Assembly: GCA_963820965.1 (NCBI GenBank)
Contig: CAWGCC010000027.1
Span: forward strand, 71,270-135,269
DNA from: an uncultured beta proteobacterium
Lineage (GTDB): Bacteria; Pseudomonadota; Gammaproteobacteria; Burkholderiales; SG8-39
Direction of reading: 5' to 3'
DNA: 64,000 nt
In this document: positions 7,322 through 18,203 of the stretch, piece after piece
Numbering within the stretch: position 1 is the stretch's first letter
Layout: every line of letters starts with the position of its first letter
Position numbers and translations under genes: made by a program
The notes under the pieces: model-generated
What the model was told of the DNA's origin: nothing
What the model saw: the letters and a program-made list of their open reading frames with translations, nothing else
The model's database searches: none

Positions 7322-9375
7322 TCACGCCGCCAGGAGGAAGTCCGTCGCGTCGATAGCATTCGCGCCTACCCCGTTAACGCCCAAAAGCAGGATGGTGTCC
7401 ATACCGTTGACATCAACCAGCGTGTTGCCCGCGGCAACGGTGATCGTCACATTGGCGGCGAATGTGTCGGCAGTGATCCCGAGCGCCGAGATGTCGAGCC
7501 GGTCCTGCCCGCCGGTCGCATTGGCGTCGAAACCCGCCTGGATCGTGTCGTTGCCGAAGCCCGAGCGCGAACACGAAGATGTCGTTGCCGAGCCCCGCCG
7601 TTCATGATGTCGTCACCCAGCCCACCGATGAGCCGGTCGGCGCCGGCGCCGGCGTTGATGGTGTCATTGCCGTCCTGGCCGTCGATGCGGTTCGCGCCGG
7701 CATCGAACGTGATGAGTGTCGTCGCCCTGGCTGCCGATGATGTTTTCGATCGTGGCCAGGGTGTCGGTACCGGTGGCGAGGCTTGTCGCGCGACGTCGTC
7801 GGTGACCGTCGCCGCCGCCGCCGTCGCGGACAGGTCGTACGTATCGGTGCCGGCACCGCCGACATAGCTGTCGTCGCCGTCACCCAGCGTGGCGACGAAG
7901 GTGTCGTTGCCGTCGCCGCCGTTCGCACTATCGTTGTCCAGGCCGCCGGTGATGACGTCGGCGCCGGCGTCCCCGTTGAGCGTGTCGTTGCCGGCGCCGC
8001 CGTTGACCATGTCCGCCCCGCCGCCGCCATTGATGATGTCTGCGCCGCCTTCGCCGTCGAGCGTGTTGGCGGCTGCACTGCCGGTCAGGGTGTCCCCGCC
8101 CGAGGTGCCGATGACGTGCTCGATGGTGGCCAGCGGTGTCGGTACCGGTTTCGGCGCTGGTCGCGGTGCCCGTCAGCCAGGTTGACGGTTGCCGCTGCCG
8201 TGGTGCCGGACAGATCGTAGGTATCGCCGGCGCCGCCGCCGCCGACATAGGCGTCGTTACCGTCACCGACCGTGGCGATGAACGTGTCGTTGCCGGCGCC
8301 GCCGTTCAGCGAGTCGGCGCCCGCGCCGCCGGTGATCGTGTCGTCGCCGGCGCCGCCGGTCAGCGCGTTGGCGCCGGCATCACCGATCAGCGCGTCGTTG
8401 CCGGATCCGCCCGTCACGTTCTCGATGTTGGCGATCGAGCTGAAGCCGGTCGCGGTGCCGGCGGCCAGGTCGACCGTGACGGCCGTGGTCGTTGCGCCGT
8501 AGGTCAAGCGTATCGACGCCGCCCTGCAGATCTGGCCGTGAACGATTCGATGCCGGTGACCGTGCTGCCTGCGAATGCCGTGATCGCCGTTCCAGCCAGG
8601 ACGACCGCGAGCGTCTGGGCCGCGGCCCCGGGTCCGCCGAGGATATTCACCCTGTCGTTGGTGCCGGCTCCGCCATCGATCGTATCCGCTCCGTCTCCGA
8701 TGGTGTAGTTGAAGGTGTCGTCGCCGTCGTTGCCGTTGAGCACGTCAGCGCCCGCGCCGCCGCTGATCGTGTCGTCGCCCAGGCCGCCGAGGACGGTGTC
8801 GTTCCCGGCGCCGGCGTTGAGGGTGTCATTGCCGTCCTGGCCGTCGATGAGGTTCAGCGCCGCCGTTGAGGGTGATGCTGTCGTTGCCCTGGCTGCCGAT
8901 GACGTTCTCGATCGTGGCCGAGCGTGTCGGTGCCGGTCTCCGCGCTTGTCGCGGACGTGGTGGTGACCGTCGCACCCGCCGCCGTTGCCGGACAGGTCGT
9001 AGGTGTCGATGCCGGCAGCGCCGATGTAGCTGTCGTTGCCGTCGCCGATCGTGGCGATGAAGCGGTCGTCGCCGGCGGCGCCGTTCGCCGTGTCGCCGTC
9101 CGCGCCGCCGGTCATCGTGTCGGCGTCTGCGCCGCCGTTGAGCGCGTCGGCACCCGCCGCCGCCGAGCATGGTGTCGTTGCCGGCGCCGCCGTTGAGCGT
9201 GTCGTTGCCCGCGCCGCCGTCGAGGAGGTCGTCCTCGGCATTGCCGTTGATGCGTGTCCGCGCCGCCGCCGCCGAAGATCATGTCCTGCCCGGCATTGCC
9301 GTTGAGGGTCTGCGCCGCTGCATCGGCGGCGATGAAGTCGCCGATCACGATCGTCGCCGCCGAGGTGACGACTCT
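7322..9375 (-). other. C-terminal RTX block 3 plus T1SS secretion-signal region of the RTX-peroxidase gene
   Basis: Repeated GGAGNDTLNGGAGADxLxGGxGDD nonapeptides spread across several frames. The last ~70 aa lack repeats (FDANATGGQDRLDISALGITADTFAANVTITVAAGNTLVDVNGMDTILLLGV...DFLLAA), as in uncleaved C-terminal T1SS signals. Confidence 0.75.
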
Positions 9376-9639
9376 CGGGATGGCCCTGGAGGTCGGTGTA
9401 GCTCACCACGACCCGCAACTGGCGGTTGACCTGGTCCTGGGTCGGCGTGAAGCTGTCGTTCGTCGCGCCTGCAATGTTGGTGAAGACGCCGCCGCCGCCC
9501 AGCGCGCTTTGCTGCCACTGGAAGCTGAACGCGCCGACGGCCGGCAGTCCATCGAGATCGGTGATCTGGTTGATCGCCTGAAGCGCCAGGGTTTCCGTTG
9601 GCGTCATGTCGGAGATCAGGACCTGGCCACCCGGCGCGA

Positions 9640-16900: not shown

Positions 16901-18203
16901 TTGATTTCGTCGGCCTGGCGGTTGTGCTCGGAGTGGAACACGTGGTGGACGGCGGTCAGGGCGATGTTCTCGTTGCCACGGCCGTCGCCGGTGATGAAGT
17001 GCCGGTCGAGCAGCTCGTTGTCGTAGGTGCCCGGCTCCGAGAGTCCGACGGCGGCGTCGCTGTCCGGCGCCAGCAGCGCCGGCGACGAACACCGGGGCCG
17101 CGGCATGCGCGATGTCGTTGAGGAAGGCGTGGCCGGTGCGAACGCCGAGACTCGCATCGATCGGCGCACCCGGCGTGCCCGAGGCGAGCCCATCGCCATC
17201 CGGATCCAATGGACCGCCCACTTGGGAGGCTTGCAGCACGATCTGCGCGAAGCCGGTGACAGGATCGGGGATGAACTTGCCGTATGCGTCGGTCGCCAGC
17301 AGCGGCAGGTCGAGGACGTCGGCATCGTCGAGCTGGATGCCGAGCATGGCCAAGGCCTGCGCCTTGACATCGGCCCAGGTGGTGAGCCCGCCGTCGGCGC
17401 CATCGAGCAGCCTGCCGGTGGCGACCGGCTGGCCGGCCGCGTTGAGCTCGTATTCCCGCAGGAACACCTGGTGCGAGGGATGCGAGGTGTAGGTCTGGTT
17501 CTGGTCGACGAAGGGTGTCGTCTGGTTGGTGTGCTCGGTGCCGGTGGGGGTGGCCCGCGTCAGCACCATGAAGTTGGTGGGGCTGCCTTCGACGTAGAGC
17601 GGATCGTCCGGCTGCAGCGGAATGAAGATCGTTTCGTTGCCGCCCTTGTTGACGAGGTCGAGGCCGTGATCGAAGAACTGGCCGAAGAACGTGAACCACG
17701 AGTTGAACGGCGCCGAGAGACCTTCGTCGGGCGCCACGTTCGGAATGGCCAGAAGCGTGCCGAGAGGAATGGGATTGCCATCGAGATCCAGCAGGGCACC
17801 ATCGGATTCGCGTATGGTGCCCAGCCCGGCCTCGACGAAGGCACTGCACGGCCGCCGGGTTGTTGCTGGTCATGTCGACGACCAGATTGCTGATGAGGCG
17901 CGGGTCCGCATCGGCCACGTTGCCGGGGGCGCCGTAGTCCGTGTTGGTGACCGGGCCGAACGTGTCGCCGTCGGCATCATCCCGGTATACCGGGTCGACC
18001 AGTCGCGGAAACAGATTGTCCGCTGCGCCGAACTCGGTCTGGCCCGGCATCAGGTTGTTGAACGACCCATCGACCGTCCGCAGGCCCAAGGGCACGAACG
18101 TGTTCGGGACCAAGCTCGCCAGGTCCGCTCCCGCTGCGTGCGCTTCCGATATGTGGATCTGCTGGAGGATGAATTCGAGGTCGGATCTGATCAGTGTGGC
18201 CAT
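13963..18203 (-). repeat. Tandem duplication unit A inside the RTX gene (peroxidase 1 + RTX block 1 + linker + Ig-like domain)
   Basis: By-eye alignment of 16231-16530 against 11848-12147 gives 265/300 identical bases with no gaps. The offset is 4383 nt, which is divisible by 3. Domain order is repeated in unit B. Confidence 0.8.

Follow-up and report, generated by a model that had tools for sequence, protein, structure and literature searches.

What does a locus encode when homology traces one giant protein across it and no reading frame does so? This question is raised by a stretch of 64,000 nucleotides, here called the window, from an uncultured beta proteobacterium (assembly GCA_963820965.1, contig CAWGCC010000027.1, positions 71,270 to 135,269), on the minus strand of which an original prediction had traced a MopA-like protein of about 3600 aa at positions 7322–18203, with two animal-haem-peroxidase domains, RTX repeats and a C-terminal signal for a type I secretion system (T1SS). 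No single long open reading frame (ORF) is present across 7322–18203 on either strand, and the longest stop-free piece on the minus strand comprises 550 aa. The prediction had followed homology from frame to frame and omitted what this implies, namely that the gene carries approximately 40 frameshifts and, as written, encodes no such protein. The analysis described here indicates that the gene is probably a two-domain MopA/PepA orthologue of a protein found in Variovorax and Ramlibacter, broken in this sequence by a consensus artefact, and that the real gene is almost certainly intact.

A frame-corrected translation was obtained with a purpose-written protein-to-DNA dynamic-programming aligner, which permits skips of 1 or 2 nt, using three intact orthologues as guides. 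With the Variovorax boronicumulans protein as the guide, 38 frame changes (33 of +1 nt and five of +2 nt) yielded a protein of 3,612 aa that shows 77.6% identity over aligned residues and contains 0 in-frame stops in its 3,612 codons; the V. saccharolyticus and Ramlibacter guides required 37 and 38 frame changes, respectively, at essentially the same positions. As a control, the same aligner introduced 0 frameshifts into the intact V. saccharolyticus and Ramlibacter genes. The gene starts with an ATG at position 18203 (MATLIRSDLEF...), its last codons, specifying DATDFLLAA, occupy positions 7325–7351, and its stop codon lies at 7322–7324, and the coordinates first proposed are thus exact. Stop avoidance alone, which makes no use of homology, sets a lower bound of at least 18 frame switches, and in a plot of G+C content at third codon positions (GC3) the coding frame of the minus strand switches dozens of times, mostly in the order 2→0→1→2, with the GC3 periodicity fully kept within each true frame. 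Two stretches that seem to be out of frame hide additional compensating insertions, for example three +1 insertions within approximately 60 nt near 13,700–13,750; therefore, the true number of frameshifts is at least 43. Among the raw-frame pieces, a 415-aa ORF at the 5′-end of the gene (16956–18203) and others match An_peroxidase and HemolysinCabind.

In a Pfam search, the reconstructed protein matched An_peroxidase (PF03098) in five stretches with 453 bits (cut-off 25) and HemolysinCabind in 13 stretches with 267 bits, and two separate raw-frame pieces each matched positions 208–449 of the An_peroxidase profile (E 5e-45 and 4e-42). A motif scan placed the distal motif FFGQFFDHGLDLV at aa 172 in domain 1 and aa 1578 in domain 2, the Arg/Glu motif GDGR.NEN at aa 405 and 1851, and the proximal-His motif AEFAH.V.R.GHSMLTE at aa 508 and 1955. 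Both domains carry GQFFDHGLDL, GDGR(G/V)NEN and FR(V/F)GHSML, in which the distal Gln-x-x-Asp-His, the R-x-x-E and the proximal His are kept; when domain 1 is aligned to the lactoperoxidase-like solved chain 8s6c_A, the Gln/Asp/His, Arg/Glu and proximal-His columns coincide. Among alignment columns in which at least 90% of 73 relatives agree, the window protein departs at 3 of 337 in domain 1, all of them conservatively, and at 5 of 343 in domain 2, as compared with departures at 7–14 of these family-conserved columns in intact orthologues. The protein further contains 39 GGxGxD-type nonapeptides arranged in three blocks (aa 886–1143, 2334–2697 and 2959–3522), and its terminus conforms to a DF[ILV]L[AS]x pattern that is conserved across orthologues. 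The two peroxidase copies with their distal- and proximal-His motifs, the three RTX blocks and the ...DATDFLLAA end described in the original prediction were thus all recovered. A segment that had been called Ig/cadherin-like, with the consensus LT(I)DDT...LRVRAVY.DAN.VLENVFSA.TAPV, does follow each peroxidase/RTX unit, and a third, more divergent copy is present. The label itself was not established: this beta-rich module had no Pfam match even at E ≤ 5, its AlphaFold model, built from a shallow alignment, had a predicted local distance difference test (pLDDT) score of 54.8 with only beta strands in its confident part, and a 34-sequence profile gave a single marginal match in the PDB (9e99_J, E 0.0013).

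MopA-type proteins are known as "long peroxicins", which combine a peroxidase domain, PERCAL motifs and a hemolysin-type Ca-binding domain. The strict PERCAL motif (G-x-D-G-x(2)-[GN]-[TN]-x-D-D) occurs once in the window protein, as GLDGIFGTADD at aa 1543 (window position ~13,560) in domain 2, and is absent from domain 1; orthologues carry two to four strict motifs, mostly in domain 2, and, as the family also includes PERCAL-free domains, this scarcity is compatible with membership. PepA (PP_2561) of Pseudomonas putida KT2440 has two haem domains, 10 PERCAL sites and 13 hemolysin-type Ca-binding (HTCaB) sites (PMC3396595), so that it differs from the window protein in carrying five PERCAL inserts per domain. 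With respect to placement, the window, V. boronicumulans and Ramlibacter have strict motifs solely in the C-terminal peroxidase domain, which also holds three of the four in V. saccharolyticus (loci L001, L002 and L004). PERCAL was reported in N-terminal domains only for the two-domain homologues outside P. putida (PMC3396595), and the placement in the window and the Comamonadaceae orthologues is the reverse of this published generalisation.

A homologue scan of one genome per species identified 575 relatives, the nearest of which are V. boronicumulans NBRC 103145 (89% identity in the peroxidase core), V. saccharolyticus, Acidovorax bellezanensis and Ramlibacter alkalitolerans. The genes of V. 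boronicumulans (3,669 aa), V. saccharolyticus (3,662 aa) and R. alkalitolerans (3,759 aa) are intact single ORFs. A tblastn search with the V. boronicumulans protein showed that its residues, from the fifth through to the C-terminal one, are matched in order in the window with jumps between frames, and the gene is collinear end to end with loci L001 (8852–19861), L002 (8828–19816) and L004 (8825–20104). Residues 1–3610 of the reconstruction align with the proteins of V. saccharolyticus (73.6% identity) and V. boronicumulans, and residues 1–2938 show 57.7% identity to a 3,642-aa ORF of P. putida strain PSE7 (locus L018), the orthology of which to PepA/MopA is assumed. The uncharacterised Variovorax and Ramlibacter orthologues, each a "peroxidase family protein", share with the window the domain order, the downstream small ORF and a PrtD-type ABC gene (72–78% identity for Variovorax and 56% for Ramlibacter), and differ from it in being single intact ORFs, whereas the window copy carries at least 38 frameshifts. 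Each peroxidase domain shows 83–88% identity to the Variovorax domain at the same position and only ~66% to its sister domain, which indicates that the duplication is old and predates this clade; by contrast, the two domains of PepA are ~70% identical and cluster together (PMC3396595).

PepA of KT2440 and MopA of P. putida GB-1 resemble the window protein in having two haem-peroxidase domains followed by Ca-binding repeats within ~3,600 aa, and T1SS ABC/HlyD genes adjoin the Pseudomonas loci. MopA of Erythrobacter sp. SD-21 and of Aurantimonas manganoxydans, compared here by their descriptions only, are likewise very large long peroxicins with one or more haem domains and an RTX domain; the A. 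manganoxydans protein also has two haem domains (PMC6247904; bioRxiv 10.1101/2022.11.10.515945), whereas that of Erythrobacter has one domain in 2,138 aa. These two proteins are alphaproteobacterial, whereas the window protein is nearest to those of Comamonadaceae, and they show a biochemically supported, haem-, Ca2+- and NAD+-dependent conversion of Mn(II) to Mn(III), for which the window protein is a candidate. The assignment to MopA made in the original prediction is therefore sound in the sense that the protein is a homologue within the MopA/PepA long-peroxicin family and combines two haem-peroxidase domains with RTX repeats and a C-terminal signal. The added claim that a double-peroxidase version beside its own T1SS genes is notable did not hold, since two distal-His motifs in proteins of 3,100–4,100 aa are found in at least 50 of 73 related loci, T1SS ABC/HlyD genes adjoin many of these loci, and two-domain MopA/PepA proteins have already been described in A. 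manganoxydans, Roseobacter AzwK-3b and P. putida (PMC6247904; PMC3396595; bioRxiv 10.1101/2022.11.10.515945). The two-domain, T1SS-linked form is the ordinary state of this widespread family, and the window gene is one more member.

All 120 homologues of the N-terminal piece among the matches listed are shorter than 730 aa, as against 2,000–4,100 aa for intact relatives, and several of the short ones lie on megabase contigs of isolates, including Variovorax sp. V512 (392 aa), Siccirubricoccus sp. G192 (535 aa) and Polaromonas P1-6 and P2-4. This reflects either a bias of the search toward short entries or frequent fragmentation of the gene in public assemblies. Plasmid matches lacking an annotated feature were considered as pseudogenes and rejected, because the record that was checked has one annotated feature overall (an empty table).

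The nature of the frameshifts was assessed by comparing the 33 +1 sites with a simulation in which random bases were inserted into the corrected coding sequence and the product was passed through the same aligner. The skipped base repeats the preceding wobble base at one of the 33 sites, as against 34% in the simulation, and is a synonymous alternative to that wobble base at 26 of 33 (45–50% in the simulation); 25 of 33 sites follow a four-fold degenerate codon (61% in the simulation). The skipped base is G or C in 28 of 33 cases, a proportion near the GC3 of the coding pieces rather than their overall G+C content. The two +1 insertions of the neighbouring ABC gene are of the same type (AGT+c and CTA+c). 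At site 13639, where the window reads TCG+C (...ATCATCTCG-C-AACCTG...), metagenomes were scanned for identical flanks of 17 and 14 nt (31 nt in total) separated by 0–2 bases: exactly one base is present in 22 of 22 metagenome contigs with identical flanks, which are at most 78% identical to the window. Across all one-base loci (n = 26), this base is C in 14, G in nine, T in two and A in one, and "GC", the two commonest alleles side by side, occurs only in the window and in L080 (ENA metagenome ERZ25039541, contig_2414), the nearest DNA relative found, at 83% nucleotide identity. Homopolymer-type sequencing error was rejected as a cause, because run lengths around the 33 +1 sites equal those at random positions of the gene, and error at methylation motifs (CTGCAG or CCGG) can be at most minor, with CTGCAG near 4 of 38 sites and with 4 of its 10 occurrences in the gene lying no more than 7 nt from a shift.

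Frame breaks are confined to ~2.9–19 kb of the window, where they affect five genes on both strands (those for the SRAP-like protein, the peroxidase, the multicopper oxidase (MCO), SCO1 and the ABC protein). The genes at 19–64 kb are long and intact, as seen for AcrB (profile positions 1–1020 of 1021) and a 1,439-aa Lhr helicase (end-to-end Pfam match), and the HlyD gene is intact as well. The frameshifts are best explained as an assembly artefact in which strain variants were collapsed: a long-read assembly would have merged two co-occurring variants over ~2.9–19 kb, and both alleles of a synonymous wobble polymorphism would have been written side by side in the consensus.

The L080 contig, which bears an assembler-style name, offers an independent view of the gene. 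At 7067–17447 it contains the same peroxidase gene, called as six fragments and broken by approximately 20 frameshifts, 16 of them +1, and the ABC, HlyD and MCO genes that flank it are unbroken. Most frameshift sites are not common to L080 and the window; four lie within 3 residues of each other, as against 1.5 expected. Two database fragments (P0001 and P0004) appeared to share the first frameshift of the window and were rejected, since the match arises mostly where tblastn extended into out-of-frame sequence of biased composition; P0060/L080 alone has genuine sites in common with the window.

The features of the gene and of the genes that follow it on the same strand are collected in Table 1.

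Table 1. Features of the peroxidase/RTX gene and its downstream neighbours in the window.
Feature	Position	Strand	Basis or remark
Peroxidase/RTX conceptual coding sequence	7322–18203	−	3,612 aa once frame-corrected; at least 38 frameshifts, no ORF as written
Animal-haem-peroxidase domain 1 (~aa 40–815)	15756–18086	−	Pfam; alignment to 8s6c_A
Domain 1 motifs: distal Gln/Asp/His; Arg..Glu (GDGRGNEN); proximal His	17651–17689; 16966–16989; 16630–16680	−	
RTX block 1	15020–15592	−	HemolysinCabind, 120 bits, 8 stretches in window 14885–15667
Beta-rich ~115-aa module, copy 1 (...LTISDDTP...LRVRAVYQDANGVLENVFSAPTAPV)	14018–14362	−	Fold not established
Animal-haem-peroxidase domain 2 (~aa 1412–2262)	11400–13960	−	Pfam, motifs
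Domain 2 motifs: distal; GDGRVNEN; proximal His	13423–13461; 12613–12636; 12274–12324	−	
RTX block 2	10654–11233	−	Nonapeptide motifs
Beta-rich module, copies 2 (9641–9995) and 3 (9340–9640, divergent)	9340–9995	−	
RTX block 3, long, GGxGxD arrays alternating with ~100-aa spacers	7556–9327	−	HemolysinCabind in window 8507–9805
C-terminal ~77 aa ending ...IDATDFLLAA	7325–7555	−	Presumed T1SS secretion signal
Small conserved ORF, ~119 aa, no family	6859–7215	−	Directly after peroxidase gene
Three-domain MCO, Tat-like (twin-arginine translocation) signal	4984–6776	−	One +2 frame change at ~6628
SCO1/SenC-type copper chaperone	4311–4938	−	PF02630, 29.4 bits (cut-off 22.8); split over two frames near 4700
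Probable PrtD-type T1SS ABC permease/ATPase, no C39 domain	2450–4134	−	+1 insertions at 3264 and 2966
HlyD-family T1SS periplasmic adaptor, intact	1015–2352	−	TIGR01843, 313 bits (cut-off 208.65), positions 2–418 of 422
CusF-type periplasmic copper-binding protein	226–519	−	PF11604, 99 bits

The ABC gene, probably of the PrtD type, matches TIGR01842 as two pieces in different frames, at positions 4–286 (243 bits) and 385–543 (246 bits), each by itself below the whole-protein cut-off of 510, and is collinear with the intact gene of locus L075 except for its two +1 insertions. The T1SS genes that the original prediction placed next to the peroxidase gene are indeed linked to it, downstream and on the same strand, and are separated from it by the small ORF and the MCO and SCO1 genes. 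No terminator-like site was found between the peroxidase gene and the small ORF, and one promoter-like site lies ~230 nt upstream of the ATG, although this evidence is weak. A plasmid of Phyllobacterium carries an annotated arrangement of peroxidase, small ORF, T1SS ABC and HlyD genes. Like the type I systems for AprA/PrtA (AprD/PrtD-AprE-AprF), the locus has a probable PrtD-subfamily ABC gene without a C39 domain, a HlyD-family adaptor and a substrate that carries GGxGxD repeats and, at its C-terminus, an acidic residue ahead of hydrophobic ones. It differs from them in that the window substrate is ~7 times larger and is a peroxidase rather than a protease or lipase, that no outer-membrane factor gene was seen in the locus, and that its ABC gene is frame-broken.

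The small ORF also follows the peroxidase orthologue, ahead of the secretion genes, in L001 (19933–20130), L002 (19899–20132), L004 (20268–20447) and L080, with 65% identity, and could encode an accessory for secretion or folding. The CusF gene, at the far end of the same-strand string of genes, is the third copper-handling gene of the locus. On the other side of the peroxidase gene, a SRAP (SOS-response-associated peptidase)-like gene on the plus strand at 18.4–19.1 kb has at least three frame changes and begins ...VYGRW... where the norm of its family is Met-Cys-Gly-Arg; it could reflect the same artefact or be a genuine pseudogene. Directly upstream of this locus are genes for a 794-aa Ser/Thr protein kinase (19119–21503, minus strand) and an 896-aa PAS-GAF-PAS-GGDEF-EAL protein (23959–26649, minus strand); cyclic-di-GMP signalling is reportedly tied to Mn(II) oxidation in P. 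resinovorans (PMC9765421). The G+C content is 0.61–0.69 at 1–20 kb and 0.68–0.73 in the rest of the window.

With the gene reconstructed, a pathway can be proposed for its product. The protein would be exported unfolded through the downstream PrtD-type ABC/HlyD system by means of its C-terminal ...DFLLAA signal, would fold outside the cell once Ca2+ binds its three RTX blocks, and its two haem domains would then act as extracellular peroxidases. We infer secretion, Ca-dependent folding and haem-peroxidase chemistry from what is known of the family and from the intact catalytic residues, as the distal Gln-Asp-His, the catalytic Arg, the haem-linking Glu and the proximal His are kept in each domain. 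By analogy with MopA, oxidation of Mn(II) to Mn(III) may be tentatively proposed as the likeliest specific activity. This reaction is carried out by MopA homologues from four unrelated genera, in Aurantimonas, Erythrobacter, Roseobacter and P. putida GB-1 (PMC6247904), and later work counts mopA as a third Mn oxidase gene, regulated by fleQ (cited in PMC5906577). The linked genes for a Tat-exported MCO, SCO1 and CusF fit a metal-oxidation locus.

It is about equally likely that the same gene, broken by the same artefact, encodes a PepA-like peroxidase that serves detoxification of H2O2 and reactive oxygen species or colonisation of surfaces or the rhizosphere, rather than a Mn oxidase, and that the MCO, SCO1 and CusF genes form a copper-homeostasis cassette. 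A heme-reconstituted peroxidase activity has been described for P. putida PepA/MopA (PMC3396595; bioRxiv 10.1101/2022.11.10.515945); PepA has in addition been proposed to act in root colonisation, and sequence does not yet allow the catalytic properties of such domains to be predicted (PMC3396595). The best NCBIfam similarities of the MCO are to PhsA and CueO, far below their cut-offs, and neither V. boronicumulans nor V. saccharolyticus has MCO and SCO1 genes at this position, the small ORF being followed immediately by the ABC gene; the pair that intervenes between these two genes in the window is thus an insertion when compared with either species. Set against this, in L080 the MCO gene occupies the same place after the small ORF (region 17534–20392), MCO genes with or without SCO1 lie near peroxidase genes in six loci of different lineages (L080, L042, L026, L032, L035 and L071), and McoA and MopA co-occur in genomes (bioRxiv 10.1101/2022.11.10.515945). 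The complete MCO and SCO1 pair recurs near peroxidase genes in two other lineages (L042 and L026), and both candidate classes of Mn oxidase, peroxidase and MCO, are physically linked at the window locus. That the peroxidase, the Tat-exported MCO, SCO1, CusF and the T1SS constitute one dedicated two-enzyme module for extracellular Mn oxidation is conceivable and rather unlikely.

A less favourable reading holds that the gene is a genuine pseudogene, in which case the operon of peroxidase, MCO, SCO1 and ABC genes is dead and has accumulated real indels. Frame changes do span neighbouring genes, including the oppositely oriented SRAP-like gene without a Met-Cys start, the lower G+C content at 1–20 kb is such as an acquired island might show, and fragmented homologues exist in other assemblies. 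However, drift long enough for approximately 40 indels would also have produced many substitutions and nonsense codons, and the complete lack of nonsense codons together with fewer departures at conserved residues than in intact orthologues argues that the gene is not a decayed pseudogene. Bacterial pseudogenes have a deletional bias, and the excess of insertions here (33:5 in favour of +1) is its opposite; a synonymous alternative to the wobble base is inserted more often than at random, which would not be expected of mutational decay, and the GC3 periodicity persists in the true frames. Decay is accordingly considered improbable. The remaining possibility, that the +1 sites are real and that mass programmed +1 frameshifting or transcript editing at ~40 sites yields a full-length conserved protein, would be unprecedented in bacteria, in which we know of no such mass-recoding system, and is extremely improbable: the perfect conservation of the protein despite the shifts, their mostly +1 direction and the two sites identical in L080 would suit it, but the sites have no common sequence motif beyond the weak CTGCAG enrichment, most of them are not common to L080, all isolate genomes and every flank-identical metagenome contig are in frame at the tested site, and unrelated neighbouring genes on both strands are also affected.

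The interpretation as an intact MopA/PepA orthologue broken by a collapsed consensus has several observations weighing against it. The artefactual origin of the frameshifts is derived from sequence statistics alone. Strain collapse limited to 2.9–19 kb has no explanation, and neither has the climb in frameshift density toward the 3′ RTX region, where 21 frameshifts fall in the last 3.4 kb. Two insertions in L080 are at the identical nucleotide and of the identical base as in the window (13639 and 13383), which pure random error does not predict; either both populations would have to carry the same, common polymorphism at these wobble positions or the error would have to depend on context, and each of these suits the shared sites better than error of a purely random kind. 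No outer-membrane factor gene (TolC/AprF) was found at 1–19 kb, and the only OEP-family gene, at 42285–43748, is part of an AcrB-type efflux operon; a TolC gene may lie elsewhere in the genome. With regard to activity, PepA of KT2440 is a peroxidase tied to root colonisation (PMC3396595), and a GB-1 strain with MopA as its sole oxidase (lacking mnxG, mcoA and fleQ) oxidised Mn(II) only weakly in the dark (PMC5906577).

For users of this sequence, the region at ~2.9–19 kb is unreliable at the single-base level, and calls of genes, pseudogenes or split genes within it are to be taken as artefact pending reads. The combination seen here, a non-identical synonymous wobble base doubled beside the original with conserved residues kept and no stops, is a usable diagnostic that separates collapsed-haplotype consensus error from gene decay. 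As to the biology, the window adds one more Comamonadaceae-like organism in which a MopA/PepA-type peroxidase of the standard two-domain form is presumably secreted and is a candidate for Mn(II) oxidation, and the linkage of its gene to those for a multicopper oxidase and copper chaperones provides a testable locus for research on Mn oxidation.

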